A program made the translations under genes and the position numbers. The notes beneath the pieces were generated by a model. It worked only from the letters and a program-made list of their open reading frames with translations. It searched no databases and was not told the origin of the DNA. Positions 5,517-62,691 of a DNA stretch of 64,000 nucleotides are shown here, one piece after another (position 1 is the first letter of the stretch; every line of letters starts with the position of its first letter). This stretch comes from Bacteroidales bacterium UBA3834 (GTDB lineage Bacteria > Bacteroidota > Bacteroidia > Bacteroidales > P3): positions 65,722 through 129,721 of the forward strand of contig DGIA01000010.1 in NCBI GenBank assembly GCA_002392965.1, in the 5' to 3' direction.

Positions 5517-6137
5517 ATGGATATAATCCTTAAATATTTCCCGGAATTGACGGAGCGGCAACGCGAACAGTTTGCCGCTCTGTTGCCATTATATGAGGAG
5601 TGGAATTCGCAGATTAATGTCATCTCCCGTAAGGACATGGATCATTTCTATGAACACCATGTGCTGCATTCGCTTGCCATAGCCAAGGTGATTCGGTTCA
5701 AGCCGATGGCCGAGGTGTTGGACGTAGGGACCGGCGGTGGTTTCCCCGGGGTGCCGTTGGCCATCATGTTTCCCGACAGCCGCTTCACGTTAATTGATTC
5801 TATCGGCAAGAAGATTAAGGTCGTCAATGATGTGGTGGAGCAAATTGGTCTTCTGAACACCCATGTGCATCAGATCAGGGCCGAACAGTTGGAGGGTGAG
5901 TACGACTTCATCGTATCCCGTGCAGTCACTACGTTGGGTGAGTTTGTGCCCTGGGTGAAGAAAAAAATATCAAAAACACAGTATCATCCGCTGCATAACG
6001 GTATCCTTTATCTCAAAGGCGGTGATTTGACCAATGAGTTGTTCCCATTCCGTCACAAGGTAAAAACATGGGACATCACGGAATGGTTTTCGGAGGAATA
6101 CTTCGAGACCAAGAAGGTGATTTACTTGCCGCTATAA
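5517..6137 (+). CDS. rsmG: 16S rRNA (guanine527-N7)-methyltransferase RsmG
   Basis: 206 aa. SAM motif VLDVGTGGGFPGVPLAI and GidB-like layout. Confidence 0.9.
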   Translation: MDIILKYFPELTERQREQFAALLPLYEEWNSQINVISRKDMDHFYEHHVLHSLAIAKVIRFKPMAEVLDVGTGGGFPGVPLAIMFPDSRFTLIDSIGKKIKVVNDVVEQIGLLNTHVHQIRAEQLEGEYDFIVSRAVTTLGEFVPWVKKKISKTQYHPLHNGILYLKGGDLTNELFPFRHKVKTWDITEWFSEEYFETKKVIYLPL

Positions 6138-6140
6138 TAG

Positions 6141-7130
6141 TTAGAGTCGTACGCCGATGAAAATGTGGGATTGCCATTTAATATTGTGGATTTCTATCTC
6201 ACGACTATCTCCGATAGTGGAGAAATTGAAAACCATGTTTGATCCCATAAACCATTGCCCAATATTATAGACAAGAGCACCGCGTGCGGTGATTATAACC
6301 TCAGGAAAACGAAATGGCACAGCATGCGCACCATTGAGATGGTAGTGTCGTTCGCTATAAATGATGAAAGAGGGGACCGTTGAGATGTGCAACAATAAGC
6401 CTTTGAATGGGACGTAATTATAACCATAACCGGCTCCAAGGCTGATTTCTTGCGAAAAAAGACTGAATGGTATGGTTTGGGGCTGCAGGTTGTCGTTCAC
6501 GTGAACGGTTCGCCACTGATAGGAAAGACCAGCCAGAAGACTCCCACAACTGCGTTGCTGCAGGAAAGATTGAGAGAAAGCTGCCGGATGGCTGAAGCGA
6601 CGATAGTTGAATGCATAGTAGGTATTAAAGTTGAATATTTCTTGCGATACAATTCCAACGGGAAGATTGAATATGATGCTGTCCTCAATGGAAGCGTTTC
6701 CGCTGAAAGAACTGGACTTGTGATAAACTGCCTCAAATCCGAATCGGTTGTAATAGGTTGAAAAAGTCCATTCATAGTCATTATATTTCCCTGCAAGTGC
6801 TTCGGGGTTAAGCGATAGATTGATGGAGAGTCCTCGGTATCCTGCGCCAATGCTGTAGGAGGTTTTACGATAGGAACTTAGGTTGCAATTGAAATGGCGG
6901 ACACCATCATGTCCAGACACCAAAAGACTTGCTCCCGAAAGGTTCATTCGCCCTTTAATATTCCAATGTGTGGAAAAGGATGAAATGTAGGTTGTGTCAA
7001 TATCTGCTACACCAGTGAGTGTCTTCCAGGATTGTGTTACCCATTGATAACTGTTATTAGGAAATGTATTCTGTGCCGATAGATTGTTAAGACACAGTAG
7101 GATAATCAACAATAGCGACTGGCGATGCAT
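6141..7130 (-). CDS. Predicted outer-membrane beta-barrel protein, function unknown
   Basis: Signal peptide MHRQSLLLIILLCLNNLSAQ. Alternating aromatic/polar pattern with an aromatic-rich C-terminus. AT-richer than its neighbours. Start moved to ATG 7130. Confidence 0.55.
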   Translation of the reverse strand: MHRQSLLLIILLCLNNLSAQNTFPNNSYQWVTQSWKTLTGVADIDTTYISSFSTHWNIKGRMNLSGASLLVSGHDGVRHFNCNLSSYRKTSYSIGAGYRGLSINLSLNPEALAGKYNDYEWTFSTYYNRFGFEAVYHKSSSFSGNASIEDSIIFNLPVGIVSQEIFNFNTYYAFNYRRFSHPAAFSQSFLQQRSCGSLLAGLSYQWRTVHVNDNLQPQTIPFSLFSQEISLGAGYGYNYVPFKGLLLHISTVPSFIIYSERHYHLNGAHAVPFRFPEVIITARGALVYNIGQWFMGSNMVFNFSTIGDSREIEIHNIKWQSHIFIGVRL

Positions 7131-8081: not shown

Positions 8082-9418
8082 TACTTCAGATTTTCAAATA
8101 CGCAATCCTTGAATTCGTCGCTCAGGTGTATGTAGGTGATTCCCATCTGGCGGCGGGCCCACTGGCGTAGTTTTTCCTGTTTGGCATTGGCCAAGGCTGC
8201 GTTATAGATGTTGTCGTAGTCATCGGTGAGGTTGGCGCGATGGGCAGCGTGTTTCTTGTTCAGGCGAACGATGCGGTAGGCATCGCGGTTGTCGCTGGTT
8301 TTCATCGCTGTGGCATTGCTTATTTGCCCTTCGTCCATGCCGGTGATACCCACGTTGTAATATTTTTCATTGATGACTTGTTTGTCGAAGCGTGTGCTTC
8401 CGTCGGGAGCTACTGCGGTGCCTCCTTGCTTGGCGTTGGCGGCGGTGCTGTATTGCCGTGCGGCATCCTCGAAGCTGATGTGTCCGGCACGGATTTCAGA
8501 GGCGATGCTGTCCAATTGCATACGTGCTCTCAGCAGGTCGTCGGAAGAAACTTTCGGGATGATAAGGATATGTCGTGCGTTGACGGTATTGCCACGGCGT
8601 TCGATGAGTTGGATGATGTGGAACCCGAACTGGGTCTCGATGATGGGCGACACTTCGCCGGGTTTGAGAGCGAATGCTGCTGCTTCAAATTCACTGACCA
8701 TTTTGCCACGGGCAAAAAAGCCAAGTTCACCGCCCTTCTTCGCCGATCCCGGGTCCTGGGAATAGAGGGTGGCGAGCATGGAGAATTTTTCTCCTTTCAG
8801 CACTCGTTCGCGTAACTCAGCCAGCTGGGTACGCACGCGATCCCTTTCGGCTTCCGATATTTCCGGTTGTATCTCAATCTCCGAAAATTCATACCGTTCC
8901 GGTATGGTGGGTAGGCTGTCGGCGGGCAGGCTGTTGAAGAAATCGGACACCTCGCGCGGGGTGACTTTGATGTCGCCGGTAATTTTGTATTGCACACGTC
9001 CGGAAATAAGGTAGTTGCGTATCATGCGCTCGTATTGCTCCTTGAGTTCGTCATAGGAAAAACCTGTGGCCTCTCTCAACGCCTCCTTGGAACCGTACTG
9101 CATCAAGTCGTTCTGGATGTATTCCTGTACATACTGGTTCACTTCATCGTCGCTTACCTCAGCATCCACGCTATCTACCTCTCCCTTGTGTATAAGTAGC
9201 TGGTTGAGAATAAGGTTTTCGAGGATGGCGCATCGGTTTTCTTGTCGTTTTTCGTTGCCTATGCGGAGGCGCATCTGGGCGTAGGAGCGGTCTATGTCTG
9301 AGTATTTGATGATGTTGCGTCCCACAACGGCGGCCACACCGTCGATGATGGTCTCCTGTGCAAGGATGGTCGGAATGCAAAGGAGTAGCAAGACAATTGT
9401 GGTGAATATTTTCTTCAT
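8081..9418 (-). CDS. SurA-like periplasmic chaperone / parvulin peptidyl-prolyl isomerase
   Basis: Signal peptide, SurA-N-like region and a parvulin domain (ARHILI...GGELGFFARGKMV.EFE...FGFHIIQL). Confidence 0.85.
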   Translation of the reverse strand: MKKIFTTIVLLLLCIPTILAQETIIDGVAAVVGRNIIKYSDIDRSYAQMRLRIGNEKRQENRCAILENLILNQLLIHKGEVDSVDAEVSDDEVNQYVQEYIQNDLMQYGSKEALREATGFSYDELKEQYERMIRNYLISGRVQYKITGDIKVTPREVSDFFNSLPADSLPTIPERYEFSEIEIQPEISEAERDRVRTQLAELRERVLKGEKFSMLATLYSQDPGSAKKGGELGFFARGKMVSEFEAAAFALKPGEVSPIIETQFGFHIIQLIERRGNTVNARHILIIPKVSSDDLLRARMQLDSIASEIRAGHISFEDAARQYSTAANAKQGGTAVAPDGSTRFDKQVINEKYYNVGITGMDEGQISNATAMKTSDNRDAYRIVRLNKKHAAHRANLTDDYDNIYNAALANAKQEKLRQWARRQMGITYIHLSDEFKDCVFENLK

Positions 9419-55229: not shown

Positions 55230-56471
55230 TTACATCCCTCCTTTCGTTAATTCATTATAAAGGGCAACACCCTTTACCGTCAACAGGTATTTCTGCCTTG
55301 GATGATTGGGTCGGTCGGGGTATTTCCGACGCACAAACTTCTCCTGTAATGCAGGTTCAAGATGGATATCCACAAAGCTCTGTCGGTGCTTGAGTTTTTT
55401 GATATTCATCATCTGGCTGATGCTTAATTCATCGTTGCCTATAATCCGCACAAGTTCAATGATGTCCTCGTTGTTTGTATAAAACTTACTATCTGGACTT
55501 AAGTTTATTATAGATGAGCTTATACGGTACTTGTACGGTGCTTGTTTGGTACTTGTACGGAGCTTGTCCTCTACCCGCTCATTAGTTATCTGGTGATTGG
55601 GCATCTCACCCTCAGGCATCTTCCACTCTTCCGGTGGATTAATCATCATATATCGATTCTTCAAGATGTTTTTCTCGCCAAGAAGCAAATTACGGAAGAA
55701 TCGAATCAAGAATAGCGGTTCATATTCTATGCCTTTGGCCACGTTGCGGTAGTTGGCTCGCACCAATGCGTTTCTGAAATACCACGAGTGGTTGGCAAAG
55801 AGGTCGTTGTTGACGCTGAAACCCAACATACGCAGATATTTGATGGTAAAGAGTGCAGTCGTTCGGGTATTTCCTTCCCTGAACGGGTGGATCTGCCATA
55901 TTCCCGACACAAAACGGGCAATATGTTCCACCATACTGTCTTTATCCATATCCGTATAAGAGAACTGACGTTCCCTATCCAGATCGTACTCCAGCGCCAT
56001 TCGCAAGTCTTGCCAGCGGCCATACAGTACAGAGTCGCCTCGCAACACCCATTCTTTTTTCGAGATGTCGTACTCGCGGAAATGCCCGGCATGTTTGAAC
56101 ACCCCTTCAAAGATAGCGCGATGGATGGCTGCCAATCCTGCCACGCTATAGGTGAAAGCATCTGTCTGCAGAAGTTTCGAAATGTTACTTGAAACCCTAT
56201 CGGCCTCTTCCTTGTCAGCATCATCGTCGTCGTGGGTAGTCTTCGTGATGTAGTATTGCTTCACCAATTCACGAGCCTCATCGATGGTAATTTCCCCTTC
56301 GATGTTTCTGCGGGCGGTATCTTGCAAATACTCCGATGTCTTTAATCCATCGACGGCCTGCAAGCCGATGGCAACGCTCCAAGCCTCCGCTCTTTCACGT
56401 TGTGCCGGCTCCCCCTGACGTATATACTCGTCAAAATCTATATATCCGTCCTTATCGTTGCTCATATTCAA
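55230..56471 (-). CDS. Fic/DOC-family protein with VbhA-like N-terminal domain and non-canonical Fic motif
   Basis: Fido core HPFREGNTRTTA, against the canonical HxFx(D/E)GNGRxxR. N-terminal QRERAEAWSVAIGLQAVDGL...GEITIDEA resembles the VbhA antitoxin fold. C-terminal winged-helix-like tail. Confidence 0.85.
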   Translation of the reverse strand: MNMSNDKDGYIDFDEYIRQGEPAQRERAEAWSVAIGLQAVDGLKTSEYLQDTARRNIEGEITIDEARELVKQYYITKTTHDDDDADKEEADRVSSNISKLLQTDAFTYSVAGLAAIHRAIFEGVFKHAGHFREYDISKKEWVLRGDSVLYGRWQDLRMALEYDLDRERQFSYTDMDKDSMVEHIARFVSGIWQIHPFREGNTRTTALFTIKYLRMLGFSVNNDLFANHSWYFRNALVRANYRNVAKGIEYEPLFLIRFFRNLLLGEKNILKNRYMMINPPEEWKMPEGEMPNHQITNERVEDKLRTSTKQAPYKYRISSSIINLSPDSKFYTNNEDIIELVRIIGNDELSISQMMNIKKLKHRQSFVDIHLEPALQEKFVRRKYPDRPNHPRQKYLLTVKGVALYNELTKGGM

Positions 56472-56530: not shown

Positions 56531-56538
56531 CAAAGATA
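56531..56538 (-). promoter_or_regulatory. -7 box (TATCTTTG on the minus strand) upstream of the Fic gene
   Basis: Exact match 59 nt upstream of ATG 56471. Confidence 0.55.
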
Positions 56539-58239: not shown

Positions 58240-58707
58240 CTATTCTCCTTTCTTCACAAAGTCCAGTTGCATTCCCAAAGCAGAAGCGATACGACAAAGA
58301 ATGTCTAATCCTGGGGAATATTTACCCTGTTCAATACGGCTCATGTTGGCAGGTGTAATACCCGCTTTCTGAGCAACTGTTTTTGCATCCAAGCCTTGCT
58401 CTTCCCGTAATTCTTTTATCCTATGCCCTATACGCTCGCGGTCGGCATTTCTATCTTGACCTGCGAACATTGGCATTTCATAACCAAGAACGTGAAGTTG
58501 GCGTGTGAGATAATTGAAATAATCATCTCGCTCTAATTTGAAATAATTGTCAGTAATTGTACAAATTGCATCTGAATATTCTTTTGATAGAAGTAGTGGC
58601 ATTGTACTACTGAATCCGATAATGTAAACACCTCCTTGTGGGTGTTCTACCCTAACTTGCGAAGTTCCGTTCTTCGCTTCTTGCATTGATAAAATCTTTG
58701 TTTCCAT
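58240..58707 (-). CDS. XRE-family helix-turn-helix regulator with unassigned ~85-aa N-terminal domain
   Basis: C-terminal HTH_XRE: IGHRIKELREEQGLDAKTVAQKAGITPANMSRIEQGKYSPGLDILCRIASALG. Its stop lies 3 nt before the GIY-YIG start. Confidence 0.8.
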   Translation of the reverse strand: METKILSMQEAKNGTSQVRVEHPQGGVYIIGFSSTMPLLLSKEYSDAICTITDNYFKLERDDYFNYLTRQLHVLGYEMPMFAGQDRNADRERIGHRIKELREEQGLDAKTVAQKAGITPANMSRIEQGKYSPGLDILCRIASALGMQLDFVKKGE

Positions 58708-58755: not shown

Positions 58756-58763
58756 CAAAGATA
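58756..58763 (-). promoter_or_regulatory. -7 box (TATCTTTG on the minus strand) upstream of the XRE / GIY-YIG gene pair
   Basis: Exact match 48 nt upstream of ATG 58707. Confidence 0.55.
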
Positions 58764-58842: not shown

Positions 58843-60015
58843 TTAGAACAACTTTCCCCTTTTTCCAAACGCCTTTTCGTATTCCTCTTTCAGATTATCT
58901 TTTGTAAGCGGTTCTTTCTCTTGCTCAATCTTACGGAGGCGGAGTTCGATGGCTCTTTTGCTACGGTCAAATAGTTTGGCCAACTCCTCAATGGTTGTCC
59001 TTTTCATAAACAAAGTCCATAATTTCTCGTCGTCCCCTGCCGTCCATTTTGCACCGTGATTGGCATACTTCTGACGCATTTTGTTTTCTGATGATGGTGA
59101 TGGCGACTCGGGGTTTGGGCATTCCTTCTTTGTCGAATAACTTTGCTTACTGGGTATCACGCCACGGACACCACCTTTGGGATTTGGTACATCGCCGTTG
59201 TAGCGAGGTATCAAGTGCATGTGGACGTGAAAGACCGATTGGCCAGCGGCTTCTCCCACGTTTATTCCGACATTATATCCGTCAGGATGGAAACGTTCAT
59301 CCACTTTCTGCCTGACGTATTGCAGCATCACGTTCATTGCTTCTCGCTCGTGGTGCGTGAGGTCGAAATAAGACGCGACATGCCGTTTGGGAACGATGAG
59401 CGCGTGCCCAGGAGAAACTGGGTAACCATCATAGAAGGCCACACAAGTAGCCGTCTCGCATATCACTTCCACCCGACGAGCCAACCTACAGAACGGGCAG
59501 GTCTCTCCTTCGGTGCGGGGAAGCTTGTTGAAATGATTGTATTGGTATAGTTCATAGGAACTGTTACTCACCAAACTCTTATAGGGTAGCTTTACGTTGC
59601 ATTGGTAGGTGTACTGTTTATGGATGGCATGAAGCCGGAAGCCTTCTTCCTCCAAGTCGCGACGAACTGCATAATAGGCCGTTCCCGTTGGCTTCAGCAA
59701 ATTCGAGACATTCATCAACACCTCCGCCTGTGCGTAAGGTTCAAGAACATTAAGAACATAATTGCAGATGATGGTGTCGAATTGTCCTGTGGGATAATCG
59801 GGGCGATAATAATAGTCGTATCCGACAATATCCAAACCTTGCCGTTTCAACTCATCCGTATCATATCCAAAACCACATCCGAAGTCGAGGATGCGACCTT
59901 TCAGAAGTCCTTTGCCCAAAAGATAACGTGTGGGAACAGATAGGTCTGTCCGCTTGATGGCAGTCAAATATGGATGGTTTATCTTCTCTGGCTCTATGTG
60001 TGTCAGTTTCTCCAT
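58843..60015 (-). CDS. Fusion protein: class I SAM-methyltransferase, histidine-triad (HIT) hydrolase/transferase and C-terminal HTH-like tail
   Basis: MTase motif I ILDFGCGFGYD (nt 59860-59892). HIT block CPFC...HALIVPKRH...HVHMHLIPR (HxHxHxx at nt 59206-59229). Tail AKWTAGDDEKLW..IEELAKLFDRSKRAIELRLRKI is Myb/SANT- or sigma-r4-like. Confidence 0.8.
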   Translation of the reverse strand: MEKLTHIEPEKINHPYLTAIKRTDLSVPTRYLLGKGLLKGRILDFGCGFGYDTDELKRQGLDIVGYDYYYRPDYPTGQFDTIICNYVLNVLEPYAQAEVLMNVSNLLKPTGTAYYAVRRDLEEEGFRLHAIHKQYTYQCNVKLPYKSLVSNSSYELYQYNHFNKLPRTEGETCPFCRLARRVEVICETATCVAFYDGYPVSPGHALIVPKRHVASYFDLTHHEREAMNVMLQYVRQKVDERFHPDGYNVGINVGEAAGQSVFHVHMHLIPRYNGDVPNPKGGVRGVIPSKQSYSTKKECPNPESPSPSSENKMRQKYANHGAKWTAGDDEKLWTLFMKRTTIEELAKLFDRSKRAIELRLRKIEQEKEPLTKDNLKEEYEKAFGKRGKLF

Positions 60016-61079
60016 AGTTCGAATCCCATGTTTTGTGCAATTTGGTTCATCGGGTTAAATGTACGGGCAAAGCAGCTCCGTAGTGTTGTATTATCCATCT
60101 GGATCAACTCTTGTGGTGTGCATCCAAGAGTGATGTAGTCCTCAAGTATTTCTTGCCCACGATAGTTCTCCTTGATACAAACACGAACAGCATTTTGTTG
60201 TGTGGTTGCAAGTTTCAACAGGTATTGGTCAAGGTCGGGTAAACGGTCGCCCTTTGAAGAGTTTACGCTGCCGTCGGCAGGAACAAGGTTCCACAGCAGA
60301 TTGTGCGAAACGAAACTCCATGGGATAAAATGGTCAAGGTCGTAATTGCCAACCACGATTGGCTTGTTGGTATAGATACATCTTTGATTATTGGAATGTT
60401 CGAGTACGAAATCCCAATAATTACGCTGCCGAGTTAAAGTTTGTCGGCTTTCTGATTTTATCAGTTTGCTGGCAATATTTGGCACATTAGGATTGCGTGC
60501 TTGTAGGAATGTTGAGAGATTCCAGTATGCATAGTCCTTTAATATGACGTAATTCTCTTTTAGATATGGGAGCCAACGTGAGTTCAATTCAACCCAAATC
60601 GTATCTTCGTCCTTAGTAAGTTTATATAGGCAATTGTTTTCAAGAGATTGCGAGCGGCGCATTATCTCTTTAGTGTCAGCAATATCAATCCACGGACGCA
60701 TGAACCAATAGGGTACGTTCTTAGGAAGAAAACCAAGTGTTTGTCTGACTAGTGTGTCATTCTTGTGTGAGTGCAACCACTTGCGTAGTTCGTTAAGGTT
60801 AATGTTCATTGGTAATTGATGCACTTCTTGAAGGGATATGATTGCATCTCGCAAAGAATCGCTTTTGCCGAACGATAACCGGAAATAACTCACGGGATAC
60901 CATGCATTGGCGACCATTTCCACCATGATGTCCCATATGTTCATTCGCGTCATATCATTCTTGACGTATAGGTCAAGAATTCCCATGAACCAATAAAACT
61001 TATAGGTGGCTGACGTATTCTTGAAAATGCGCGTCAACGGTTCAATCGTGAGAGTATTAGATGTCGGCAAGGTGTTCAT
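60003..61079 (-). CDS. HNH (His-Me finger) endonuclease-domain protein with unassigned ~230-aa N-terminal domain
   Basis: CIYTNKPIVVGNYDLDHFIPWSFVSHNLLWNLVPADGSVNSSKGDR (nt 60237-60383) fits the HNH/His-Me pattern. N-terminal ATYKFYWFMGILDLY... is unrecognised. Overlaps the downstream gene by 13 nt. Confidence 0.75.
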   Translation of the reverse strand: MNTLPTSNTLTIEPLTRIFKNTSATYKFYWFMGILDLYVKNDMTRMNIWDIMVEMVANAWYPVSYFRLSFGKSDSLRDAIISLQEVHQLPMNINLNELRKWLHSHKNDTLVRQTLGFLPKNVPYWFMRPWIDIADTKEIMRRSQSLENNCLYKLTKDEDTIWVELNSRWLPYLKENYVILKDYAYWNLSTFLQARNPNVPNIASKLIKSESRQTLTRQRNYWDFVLEHSNNQRCIYTNKPIVVGNYDLDHFIPWSFVSHNLLWNLVPADGSVNSSKGDRLPDLDQYLLKLATTQQNAVRVCIKENYRGQEILEDYITLGCTPQELIQMDNTTLRSCFARTFNPMNQIAQNMGFELWRN

Positions 61080-61086
61080 TTGAATT

Positions 61087-61947
61087 TTAATTCTTTAAAT
61101 GCTCATAAAGCTTAAGCCTCAGCACCTCGCCATTCTCAAACTCAAATTGGAACTTATTGCGATTGAACCTCGGATTGTTCTTGTGGATAATCCTATGGTA
61201 GTTGGGGCTGATAATAATGATGTTTGTGGAGTCGTTGTTCTGCGAACGGGTGAAATAATCAATGTGGTGTGCTTCTACTACACTATCTCCATATTCATCG
61301 CCAATTTTCTCGCCGCTAATTTCGTCGCGATAGTTGTAGAAACGCTTCAATGTTAGGATGATGCTGCGGTCAATCCTGCGATACTTCACCAGACGTTGTT
61401 TCTCTTCAACCGAAGCTGTTTTGTCTGCCATAAAGAATTTGTCGTCATCACTTTGCTCAAATAATTCTTCGGGCATATCTCTAAGTCGATTGGCAACTTG
61501 TTTAAACTCGGTATTGGGACAACACTCCATACAGAGAACATCGGAGTTGGGTGTAAGGTATAGCCGGATATATTCATGTATATCGTTTGGAAGCATGAGC
61601 TGGCGATGGTGATTCTCCTTCAGTTGACGCTTGGTGGATAGGTAAGAATAACTCTCGTGAAAGATACTGCGGAGCTTGGCAACTATTGGCGAGGTTGTGG
61701 AATATCGAATCTGTATAATATCTTTATGGCCAGGATACTTTCGTTGGTCGAAATTTTGATTCTTTAGAATTGCATCGAAAAACTCTCCGTCAATTAGTAT
61801 CTTTATCTGTTTTCCGGCTCCGTGTTTCAAAATGGATGCATCCCATTCCTTGAAGCGAACATAGACAGAAATGGGTATTGCCAGACCTTCGTTAAGGAGA
61901 GACCAGTTTACATCTTTCTGCAAAATAAAACCATCATCGTAATCCAT
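61087..61947 (-). CDS. HNH endonuclease with unassigned ~185-aa N-terminal (possibly DNA-binding) domain
   Basis: C-terminal VVEAHHIDYF...NIIIISPNYHRIIH (nt 61180-61380) is a McrA-type HNH. The usual Cys pair is absent (RFYNYRDEISGE). Start set at ATG 61947 because the track's extension to 62136 crosses the -7 box at 61994-62001. Confidence 0.75.
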   Translation of the reverse strand: MDYDDGFILQKDVNWSLLNEGLAIPISVYVRFKEWDASILKHGAGKQIKILIDGEFFDAILKNQNFDQRKYPGHKDIIQIRYSTTSPIVAKLRSIFHESYSYLSTKRQLKENHHRQLMLPNDIHEYIRLYLTPNSDVLCMECCPNTEFKQVANRLRDMPEELFEQSDDDKFFMADKTASVEEKQRLVKYRRIDRSIILTLKRFYNYRDEISGEKIGDEYGDSVVEAHHIDYFTRSQNNDSTNIIIISPNYHRIIHKNNPRFNRNKFQFEFENGEVLRLKLYEHLKN

Positions 61948-61993: not shown

Positions 61994-62001
61994 CAAAGAT
62001 A
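61994..62001 (-). promoter_or_regulatory. -7 box (TATCTTTG on the minus strand) upstream of the HNH / HNH / MTase-HIT operon
   Basis: Exact match 46 nt upstream of ATG 61947. A CAAA (the -33 TTTG on the minus strand) lies about 20 nt further upstream. Confidence 0.55.
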
Positions 62002-62225
62002 CACATTATTTCTGAATCGGCAAAAAATAATTATTCCTATATATCGTGATTGTGCTTCCTGACGTCCATCTTCCAGTTCCATTTCCCTAAGCGCTTCGGC
62101 AAAATCCTCATAGTGAGCATGCTCCGCAACGAGCACCTCGCCATCCTCTCTTCCCTCAAATCATACCGCAAACTCTATAAGCCTCGTAGAATGAGGAACT
62201 TGAATGAGTAAACGAAACAAAAAAT

Positions 62226-62372
62226 CTGACAGTCTGACAATCTGACAATCAAAAAAAAGATACCTGACACCTCTTTATATAATATATAATTAATTAATAA
62301 TTAATAATATATATAAAGAATAGAGGGTTTGTCACCCCTCAAAAATAGACTGTCAGACTGTCAGACTGTCAG
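62226..62372. repeat. About 147-bp imperfect palindrome: octamer arrays (CTGACAGT x3 / GACTGTCA x3) around an AT-only core
   Basis: CTGACAGTCTGACA is the exact reverse complement of TGTCAGACTGTCAG. The inner arms CCTCTTTATATA... / ...TATATAAAGAATAGAGG flank the core TAATTAATTAATAATTAATAATATATA. Confidence 0.9.
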
Positions 62373-62691
62373 AAATTAACCCATCAAATTCACCTAAAAG
62401 GCAATTATTCAATGAAATACGACATCACCAAACCCAAGACACCCATGATACCATCCCTCGGAAAAGGGTCCTTCACACCCCGCCAGGTTCAGGCGGTCGT
62501 CGAGTGGCTGGGAGCCCCGTAGGCTCCCCAATCTACCGCCATCGTCACTTATCGGCAGCCATCCGCCCCCATCGGCAGAACCCCACGGAAAAAGGTCGTA
62601 CTTTTGCATCGTGGTTCAGTCGGGAGGGTGCCGGCAAGGTTGTGGCTAACCTAGGTCAACCTTAGCTCTAACCTGTGGAATCCTTGGCACA

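Follow-up and report, generated by a model that had tools for sequence, protein, structure and literature searches.

The window considered here is a stretch of 64,000 nucleotides (nt) of contig DGIA01000010.1 from Bacteroidales bacterium UBA3834 (assembly GCA_002392965.1, positions 65,722 to 129,721 of the forward strand), and positions 58843 to 61947 within it contain three minus-strand genes, referred to as A, B and C. Gene B is predicted to encode a nuclease with a Cas9-type HNH domain, and gene C a protein in which a class I S-adenosylmethionine (SAM)-dependent methyltransferase is joined to a histidine-triad (HIT) domain. B and C form a conserved, co-inherited and widespread two-gene pair of enzymes with intact catalytic motifs, and the locus appears to consist of two independent units that are transcribed together, gene A and the B-C pair. 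The coordinates and lengths of the three genes given in an initial annotation of this DNA, together with the 7-nt gap between A and B and the 13-nt overlap between B and C, were reproduced by open reading frame (ORF) calling. The genes and their predicted parts are as follows.

61087-61947, minus strand: gene A, 286 amino acids (ORF call)
60003-61079, minus strand: gene B, 358 amino acids (ORF call); helical N-terminal domain (approximately residues 1-230), Cas9-type HNH domain, helical tail
60237-60380, minus strand: HNH catalytic core of gene B, residues 234-281, YDLDHFIPWSF...WNL...NSSK
58843-60015, minus strand: gene C, 390 amino acids (ORF call); class I SAM methyltransferase, HIT domain and optional tail resembling a helix-turn-helix (HTH)
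59521-59967, minus strand: methyltransferase domain of gene C, residues 17-165, SAM motif I ILDFGCGFG
59137-59508, minus strand: HIT domain of gene C, residues 170-293, with CPFC, HVHMHLIPR and a GGVRGVIP tail
58846-59136, minus strand: variable C-terminal tail of gene C, residues 294-390, possibly a small HTH

Conservation of the B-C pair

A scan of one genome per species with an alignment of C returned 80 Bacteroidales loci, and B lies directly upstream of C in all 80. Identity to the window proteins across these loci is 42-88% for B and 68-92% for C. The reverse scan, in which metagenomes were searched with an alignment of B, gave 73 loci with enough downstream sequence, and a C-type gene follows B in 70 of them. 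Further, independent look-ups gave the same picture. Pairwise distances of B and C are correlated (r = 0.41), a value reached by none of 999 Mantel permutations, and the mean pairwise identity is 87% for C versus 59% for B. The slow evolution of C fits a universal chemical substrate. Both genes are intact and their catalytic residues invariant in more than 150 loci from several Bacteroidales families. Cultured strains that have the pair include Phocaeicola plebeius DSM 17135, P. coprophilus DSM 18228 and Segatella buccae ATCC 33574, and the metagenome search returned thousands of clusters for each of B and C.

The partner of B varies in form. It is the methyltransferase-HIT fusion in most loci, a methyltransferase alone in seven (e.g. 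L125, 163 amino acids) and a HIT protein alone in eight (e.g. L143, 137 amino acids), and in three divergent Bacteroidales loci B is followed only by an unrelated ORF of 104 amino acids. A homologue of C in Paraprevotella (L001, 8001-11871), 71% identical to the window protein and present on hundreds of contigs, occurs without B; 64 nt further on it is followed by a superfamily 1 (SF1) helicase of 902 amino acids that has AAA_11/AAA_12 and DUF2726 domains and may stand in as nuclease partner.

Gene A does not share in this conservation. It adjoins B-C only in the lineage of the window and in L073, L138, L140 and L154, out of approximately 155 loci, and where it is present the order is either A-B-C or B-C-A. 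Homologues of A with 73-83% identity precede a Wadjet-like cluster, a helicase of 1674 amino acids or NOV_C/NERD genes with no B-C nearby, and A precedes unrelated cassettes in four other contexts. Of the co-localization that the initial annotation expected for all three genes in other genomes, the B-C part is thus borne out and A is an occasional neighbor.

Predicted domains of genes B, C and A

Gene B matches PF13395 (HNH_4) over residues 234-281 with an E-value of 1.4e-10 and 41.4 bits against a cutoff of 22, in agreement with the His-Me finger (HNH) that the initial annotation placed after an N-terminal domain of about 230 residues. The motif aligns to the sequence YDVDHIVPQSF in the HNH domain of Cas9, with D249 and H250 of B corresponding to D839 and H840 of Cas9. 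None of the residues D249, H250, N264 and N273 varies among 21 homologues, and in 42 distant family members, 39 of which also match HNH_4, their conservation is at least 90%. Gene B is thus predicted to be a Cas9-type HNH nuclease. In the structure model of the protein (mean predicted local distance difference test score, pLDDT, of 79 over the whole model) the first 230 residues or so are mainly helical. Profile searches with the 42-member alignment found no match for residues 1-230 in Pfam or the PDB, and Foldseek searches against the PDB and BFVD matched the HNH part only, leaving the N-terminal domain without a counterpart. SspB/DUF4007 was considered as a homologue of this domain and rejected (hhalign probability 0.1%). 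The B family comprises 703 clusters (50% identity) at E<=1e-30, nearly all of which are 340-390 amino acids long. Domains known from LexA/CI-like repressors were matched within the set of 42 aligned members, Peptidase_S24 in two of them and HTH_3 in one, and the likely carriers are the only unusually long members, P0459 (582 amino acids) and P0482 (529 amino acids); these matches hint at damage-inducible control. Another member, P0279 (453 amino acids), has an internal duplication of part of the N-terminal domain.

The initial annotation read gene C as a class I methyltransferase followed by a histidine-triad domain, and both parts hold. The first matches Methyltransf_23 (E 1.8e-12, 47.7 bits against a cutoff of 27), and SAM motif I, D44-F-G-C-G-x-G50, is invariant in the homologues. 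The second matches HIT PF01230 (E 8.5e-27, 94 bits against a cutoff of 21.5), and the histidine triad H263, H265 and H267 is invariant in 18 C sequences. Conservation of the catalytic residues of both the HNH and HIT domains across their families was thereby confirmed by homologue alignment. Profile matches of the HIT domain in the PDB are to HIT proteins of the Hint, Fhit and Ap4A-phosphorylase type, and it also matches the phage family phrog_19494 (2.8e-31), which represents a subtype with the GGVRGVIP tail. Like Hint, Fhit and aprataxin, it retains an intact HxHxH nucleotidyl-phosphoramidase/hydrolase core; it differs from them in its fusion to a methyltransferase, its operon coupling to a nuclease and the GGVRGVIP tail shared with phrog_19494. 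The NCBI label for C homologues is 'bifunctional class I SAM-dependent methyltransferase/HIT family protein'. A Myb/SANT- or sigma-r4-like HTH had been proposed for the C-terminal tail of gene C, a proposal that fared poorly: the match to HTH_10 is weak (E 0.014-0.09, with 0.014 for the tail alone), and most homologues, at 287-303 amino acids, lack the tail or have a different one.

The initial annotation also likened the N-terminal block of gene C to that of the 'DNA phosphorothioation-associated putative methyltransferase' family, TIGR04096. The resemblance stands at the domain level (E 4e-17), and membership in the family does not, as gene C scores 62.1 bits against a cutoff of 150 and residues 17-94 align to positions 6-85 of a 478-position model. 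The NVLEP motif that follows strand beta4 in gene C is common to TIGR04096 proteins, and the methyltransferase domain is 31-36% identical to that of TIGR04096 proteins of Synechocystis and Leptolyngbya over motif I, the stretch that precedes it and the NV[IL]E motif, so that homology appears to be confined to this domain. TIGR04096 proteins, at 666-690 amino acids, differ from C in having additional N- and C-terminal domains and no HIT domain. To our knowledge the family has no known function. Small methyltransferases of Francisella and Allochromatium were also considered as orthologues of the methyltransferase domain and were rejected, the similarity being generic and only 27-28%. Gene C has neither motif IV of DNA methyltransferases ((D/N/S)PP(Y/F/W) or PCQ) nor a target-recognition domain, and gave no match to the Pfam families N6_Mtase or DNA_methylase. 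The segment after beta4, NYVLNVLEPY, is typical of generic small-molecule methyltransferases (Methyltransf_23/11/25). Since motif IV and a target-recognition domain are lacking and the protein is too conserved, gene C is probably not a classical DNA methyltransferase.

Gene A is predicted to be an independent, single-gene nuclease module of the restriction type that is co-transcribed with B-C in the window. Its reading frame is open upstream to a GTG at 62136, and the ATG at 61947 is taken as the start because approximately 120 homologues of 284-295 amino acids begin with MDYD. The initial annotation ventured a B3/EcoRII-N-type pseudobarrel for the N-terminal domain, and structural comparison favors this guess. 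The AlphaFold2 model has a pLDDT of about 70-93 over the N-terminal 150 residues or so, and the best Foldseek matches are the N-terminal domain of LlaJI.R1 (probability 0.98) and FUS3, LEC2, VRN1 and NgoAVII (top structures 6c5d, 6j9b, 6j9c, 4i1k and 4rct), with probabilities of 0.72-0.98, target TM-scores of 0.47-0.54 and weak E-values (0.015-0.3). A B3-like fold is therefore a plausible prediction for this domain. The C-terminal part had been annotated as a McrA-type HNH without the usual cysteine pair. Here the motif stands, as EAHHID...NN...SPNYHrIIH (HH-x(8)-NN-x(10)-PNYH-x(3)-H) is cysteine-less and invariant among homologues, and the names given by JGI to three homologues back the assignment. 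Profile and structural support did not follow: there was no Pfam match even at E<=10 for the C-terminal 97 residues, neither comparison with the B family by hhalign nor searching the PDB with a profile gave a match, and the C-terminal region of the model has a pLDDT below 50. The putative HNH assignment of gene A accordingly draws on the conserved motif and the three JGI names. The arrangement recalls that of EcoRII-N, BfiI-C, NgoAVII and LlaJI.R1, in which a B3-type pseudobarrel is combined with a nuclease, as is predicted for gene A; gene A differs from these restriction enzymes in that the nuclease motif is a cysteine-less, HNH-like one rather than a PD-(D/E)XK, PLD or McrB-type module, and in that it has no cognate methyltransferase.

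Like B-C, gene A is found at the 5' edge of varied same-strand cassettes (L189-L192, with A at approximately 6001-6861, as well as L186-L188, L004 and L193-L195), which include a JetABCD-like Wadjet cluster, a primase/helicase/UvrD fusion of 1674 amino acids and NOV_C/NERD genes. Gene A may thus be the sign of a favored site of insertion, or it may serve as a generic nuclease of the front line. The position immediately before B, which gene A holds in the window, is often held elsewhere by other small single-gene nucleases of the T5orf172/GIY-YIG type, for example a gene of 221 amino acids just upstream of B in L024, L030, L043 and L049, and L143 4098-4949.

Genomic setting and the link to Ssp operons

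Systems of the SspABCD type with the restriction partners SspE or SspFGH provide defence based on the sensing of DNA phosphorothioation (PT), according to Xiong (2020) and Wang (2021) as cited in PMC12839542 and PMC12914056. The B-C pair is evolutionarily tied to the operons for this modification. By tblastn, full-length homologues of B (approximately 30% identity, 98% coverage) were found on plasmids of cyanobacteria, Hymenobacter, Allochromatium, Francisella, Methylorubrum and Sinorhizobium. An ssp operon contains or adjoins the B-like gene in six of 13 plasmid loci, the six being from cyanobacteria and Hymenobacter. These operons encode SspB (DUF4007), the large ATPase SspC, the PAPS-reductase-like SspD and the cysteine desulfurase SspA; the Hymenobacter locus also has SspF. 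A TIGR04096 methyltransferase of 666-690 amino acids is encoded in three of these six loci, which places this family, whose methyltransferase domain is the closest relative of that in gene C, in the same clusters as B-type HNH genes.

Within the Bacteroidales, ssp genes lie beside B-C only in L006, L062, L071 and L083. The order in L071 and L083 is sspB-sspC-(three small genes)-sspD-B-C, with sspD ending 2-4 nt before B (4 nt in L071, where the PADLOC match to SspD is 5e-74), so that B-C sits directly after sspD, where Ssp restriction partners sit. In both L006 and L071, SspB (1e-88) and SspC (E = 0) were also identified by PADLOC upstream of B-C. L006 contains the closest relative of the window pair (B 87% and C 92% identical), and both it and L062 carry sspB-sspC and an OLD-like pair. 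Directly before B in L006 (approximately 8770-8930) is an in-frame N-terminal stump of sspD that retains the PP-loop MNVRHILGISGGKD, and C-terminal sspD stumps are found just upstream of B in L025 (8832-8942) and L065 (216-326). These stumps, immediately upstream of B, show that ssp operons degenerate around an intact B-C, which has repeatedly outlasted the modification genes. The initial annotation saw no dnd or ssp genes in the window, and tblastn with SspA, SspB, SspC and SspD queries likewise found no ssp genes there; a lack of connection to ssp does not extend to the family, given the B-type genes in ssp operons elsewhere and after sspD in some Bacteroidales. In Streptomyces phage phiSASD1 (L179, 4123-5450) the PAPS-reductase-like gp3 is directly followed by the HIT protein gp4, which is 39% identical to the HIT domain of gene C, the GGVRGVIP tail included. 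The HIT subtype is here, for the second time and independently, paired with a PP-loop enzyme.

The features that surround the three genes in the window are listed below.

61994-62001, minus strand: Bacteroides-type -7 promoter box TATCTTTG, 46 nt upstream of the gene A ATG
58240-58707: gene D, XRE HTH protein, 155 amino acids
56953-58236: gene E, 427 amino acids, with W/Y-rich repeats of about 40 residues; 3-nt gap from gene D

Identical -7 boxes precede gene D (58756-58763) and a further gene, F (56531-56538), and none is found inside A-B-C. On this evidence there seem to be three transcription units, A-B-C, D-E and F, and A-B-C is plausibly one transcript in the window. The single promoter box described in the initial annotation was found at its place, with the qualification that the motif alone is weak evidence, having 36 matches in the window against 26 expected. 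Approximately 280 nt upstream of gene A is a 26-nt inverted repeat (62225-62250 and 62348-62373, 92% complementary, with three TCTGACAR octamers) which encloses a 97-nt AT-rich palindromic spacer, and a similar run of repeated octamers (CTGCAACA) occurs upstream of B in L010. The inverted repeat may act as an operator or as a site for recombination, or it may be an invertible element. The AT-rich island of the initial annotation was corroborated, with a G+C content of 38-48% in the region compared with 55-58% on its low-coordinate side. A tRNA-linked island boundary was considered and dropped, since no tRNA lies between 50000 and 64000.

The genes that flank B-C are hypervariable and mostly on the same strand, and representatives of the flanking clusters are complete known or candidate defence systems, including a JetABCD-like Wadjet cluster, a short pAgo with TIR-APAZ, Schlafen/AlbA, a CoiA-like protein, FRG (PDC-S15), an OLD-like pair (PDC-M31) and Fic (PDC-S72). 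The setting of B-C is a defence island, in line with the AT-rich island with nuclease and toxin genes described in the initial annotation. A gene for an XRE HTH protein of about 73 amino acids precedes B in 27 of the 80 loci and also in Leptolyngbya. In the window, gene F (55230-56471) encodes a Fic-family protein (PADLOC candidate PDC-S72, 2e-123). Fic of this type lies one to three variable genes downstream of C in approximately 11 of the 80 loci (among them L016, L024, L026, L030, L041, L049, L067 and L080), and B-C and Fic look like conserved bookends of a variable defence hotspot. Gene E has a weak GIY-YIG match (E 0.037) and matches phrog_20046 (1.4e-39). In L010 a D-E pair with 90-96% identity comes after a B-C that has diverged far more, and D-E is for this reason read as a mobile cargo unit.

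PADLOC returned no named system for A, B or C, and no Ssp or Dnd model for these proteins or for the B-like protein of Hymenobacter. The nearest model for gene C is the HIT protein ThsC2 of Thoeris (2e-12, HIT domain only), and no match to ThsA or ThsB was found among the six proteins of the locus. Literature searches, which took in recent surveys of Dnd, BREX and gut PT, found no paper describing the B-C pair. The pair is absent from PADLOC and from the searched literature, and on this point the initial annotation, which knew of no named system with such an architecture, was right.

Possible functions of the B-C pair

A defence function for the pair, as well as the target of B and the substrate of C, we infer from sequence comparison and genomic context. 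The reading preferred here, to which we would give about an even chance, is that B-C is a module from the accessory or effector repertoire of Ssp-type DNA phosphorothioation which has mostly been separated from sspBCD in gut and rumen Bacteroidales, where it would persist, orphaned, as an autonomous module of defence islands. B would be the effector, with an N-terminal domain that reads DNA, possibly its PT status, and an HNH domain that nicks or cuts foreign DNA. C would be its enzymatic partner, both domains of which would act on phosphoryl groups of nucleotides or DNA 5' ends, the HIT domain removing AMP from, or desulfurizing, 5'-adenylylated or 5'-thiophosphorylated species and the methyltransferase methylating the same kind of group. 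As a result, nicks made by B would not be resealed, or the PT and adenylate products of nicking or PT insertion would be cleared.

Several observations shape this proposal. The interchangeability of the methyltransferase and HIT domains, together with the extreme conservation of C, suggests that both act on one universal chemical group, and the Ssp context of a nickase, a PP-loop adenylating enzyme and a sulfur donor makes phosphoryl groups on nucleotides or on DNA 5' ends at nicks the likely candidate. Methyltransferase-only and HIT-only lineages would exist because either activity of C would suffice, and the HIT-only variants rule out methylation as the sole function of the partner. HIT proteins act on AMP-X bonds, Ap4A and 5'-AMP-DNA, and a nucleotide- or DNA-end-directed chemistry for the HIT domain of C is therefore plausible. 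HINT1 converts (d)NMPS to (d)NMP and H2S and hydrolyses P-N, P-F and acyl-AMP bonds (PMC8775712). The PAPS-reductase-like gene that neighbors this HIT subtype in phage phiSASD1 is taken as a further chemical precedent. That B is a nuclease paired with a nucleotide- or end-processing enzyme may be held with low to moderate confidence. A more specific proposal, which we regard as quite unlikely, is that C edits nick termini, its methyltransferase capping 5'-phosphate or 5'-thiophosphate ends with a methyl group and its HIT domain stripping 5'-AMP or sulfur from intermediates of ligation or PT insertion. If this were true, neither the ligase of the host nor that of a phage could reseal the nicks that B makes in invading DNA, or foreign PT marking would be cut short; the pair would then represent a new defence principle, a nuclease with an anti-repair end-modifying enzyme, and C would be the first methyltransferase from bacteria to act on the 5'-(thio)phosphate ends of DNA.

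Among characterized systems, B-C resembles the partners of SspABCD in its position after sspD and in the occurrence of B homologues within ssp operons of cyanobacteria and Hymenobacter, and B resembles Ssp restriction effectors in combining an HNH-superfamily nuclease with an N-terminal sensor-like domain. Unlike these partners, B and C have no PADLOC match to SspE, SspF, SspG or SspH and no DUF262 NTPase, B is joined by a methyltransferase/HIT protein, and most loci, the window included, have no ssp genes nearby. We know of no methyltransferase/HIT partner in Ssp systems. Another comparison is with the PT-dependent type IV enzymes ScoMcrA, SprMcrA and EcoWI, which consist of an SBD/winged HTH, sometimes an SRA domain, and an HNH domain, and which are frequent in dnd loci (PMC10853773). 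B likewise has an HNH domain preceded by a putative DNA-reading region, is tied to PT genes and is often found without them. It differs from these enzymes in the lack of similarity to SBD or SRA domains, in the HNH_4 Cas9-like subtype, in its tie to ssp rather than dnd, and in having an obligate enzymatic partner in the Bacteroidales. It is possible that B-C is kin to the PT-associated nuclease effectors in defence islands and that it brings a new end-modifying chemistry.

A number of points weigh against the preferred reading. In the Bacteroidales, ssp genes are absent from the 6-10 kb around B-C at more than 90% of the loci, HIT is absent from all of the plasmid ssp loci with B, and B homologues occur alone or beside unrelated small methyltransferases in Calothrix, Nostoc, S. 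meliloti, Francisella and Allochromatium. Searches with hidden Markov models and Foldseek found no similarity of the N-terminal domain of B to the PT-binding SBD, SRA or SspB domains. Co-location in defence islands can occur without functional coupling, and an end-capping or clean-up role for C is argued from family chemistry only.

Alternatively, B-C could be a restriction-modification-like system in which C puts a methyl mark on the bases or the backbone of host DNA, B cuts DNA that is unmarked, and the upstream XRE HTH protein serves as the controller. The pairing of a nuclease and a methyltransferase with coupled translation, the XRE gene before B and a Francisella plasmid on which a B-like gene is followed 3 nt later by a class I methyltransferase of 197 amino acids all agree with this. 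The methyltransferase of C, however, is of the generic small-molecule type described above, without (D/N/S)PP(Y/F), PCQ or a target-recognition domain, and C is far more conserved than B, the opposite of what is seen with diversifying specificities. Moreover, HIT-only partners cannot methylate and B homologues occur without any methyltransferase, which leaves the restriction-modification scheme unlikely.

We judge a toxin-antitoxin or abortive infection system to be an equally minor contender. Here B would be a latent toxic nuclease restrained by C, which would degrade or methylate an activating nucleotide, such as an alarmone of the Ap4A type, or would modify B itself, and infection would set off the response by disabling or swamping C. 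A nucleotide ligand could be inactivated by hydrolysis as well as by methylation, in keeping with the variants that have only the methyltransferase or only HIT, and the large N-terminal domain of B could bind such a ligand; the HIT domain of C belongs to the branch of Fhit, Hint and Ap4A phosphorylase, and its nearest PADLOC model is ThsC2. The module nevertheless has no signal-producing enzyme, B is widespread without C-type partners and is followed only by the 104-residue ORF in three Bacteroidales loci, and nothing points to toxicity of B.

It is very unlikely that the pair lacks a defence function altogether, with B as a selfish homing-type HNH gene that spreads itself and adjacent cassettes and carries C, a gene of nucleotide metabolism, as a hitch-hiker, or with B-C as the decaying remnant of an ssp operon. 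The position of B-C, and separately of A, at the 5' edge of highly variable same-strand cassettes and the ongoing decay seen in the sspD stumps around B-C could be read in this way, but both genes remain intact with invariant catalytic residues across the loci, they are co-inherited, and no intron, intein or target-site context accompanies them. The single three-component system proposed in the initial annotation, in which two HNH nucleases would cooperate with the methyltransferase/HIT protein, is extremely improbable and was rejected on neighborhood statistics, for despite the tight spacing and shared promoter box in the window and the few divergent lineages in which A adjoins B-type genes, A is missing from about 150 of 155 B-C loci, varies in position where present, and has homologues that head other cassettes without B-C.

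If the preferred reading of B-C as a largely orphaned module of Ssp-type phosphorothioation is correct, the pair, which is common in human and animal gut Bacteroidales, would add a candidate effector class to PT-based immunity. The tie to Ssp operons gives the TIGR04096 family of putative PT-associated methyltransferases, which has long lacked an explanation, a concrete, testable partner. The use of a methyltransferase and a HIT domain as swappable partners of a nuclease points to a nucleotide or DNA-end chemistry that may be without parallel in characterized defence systems.

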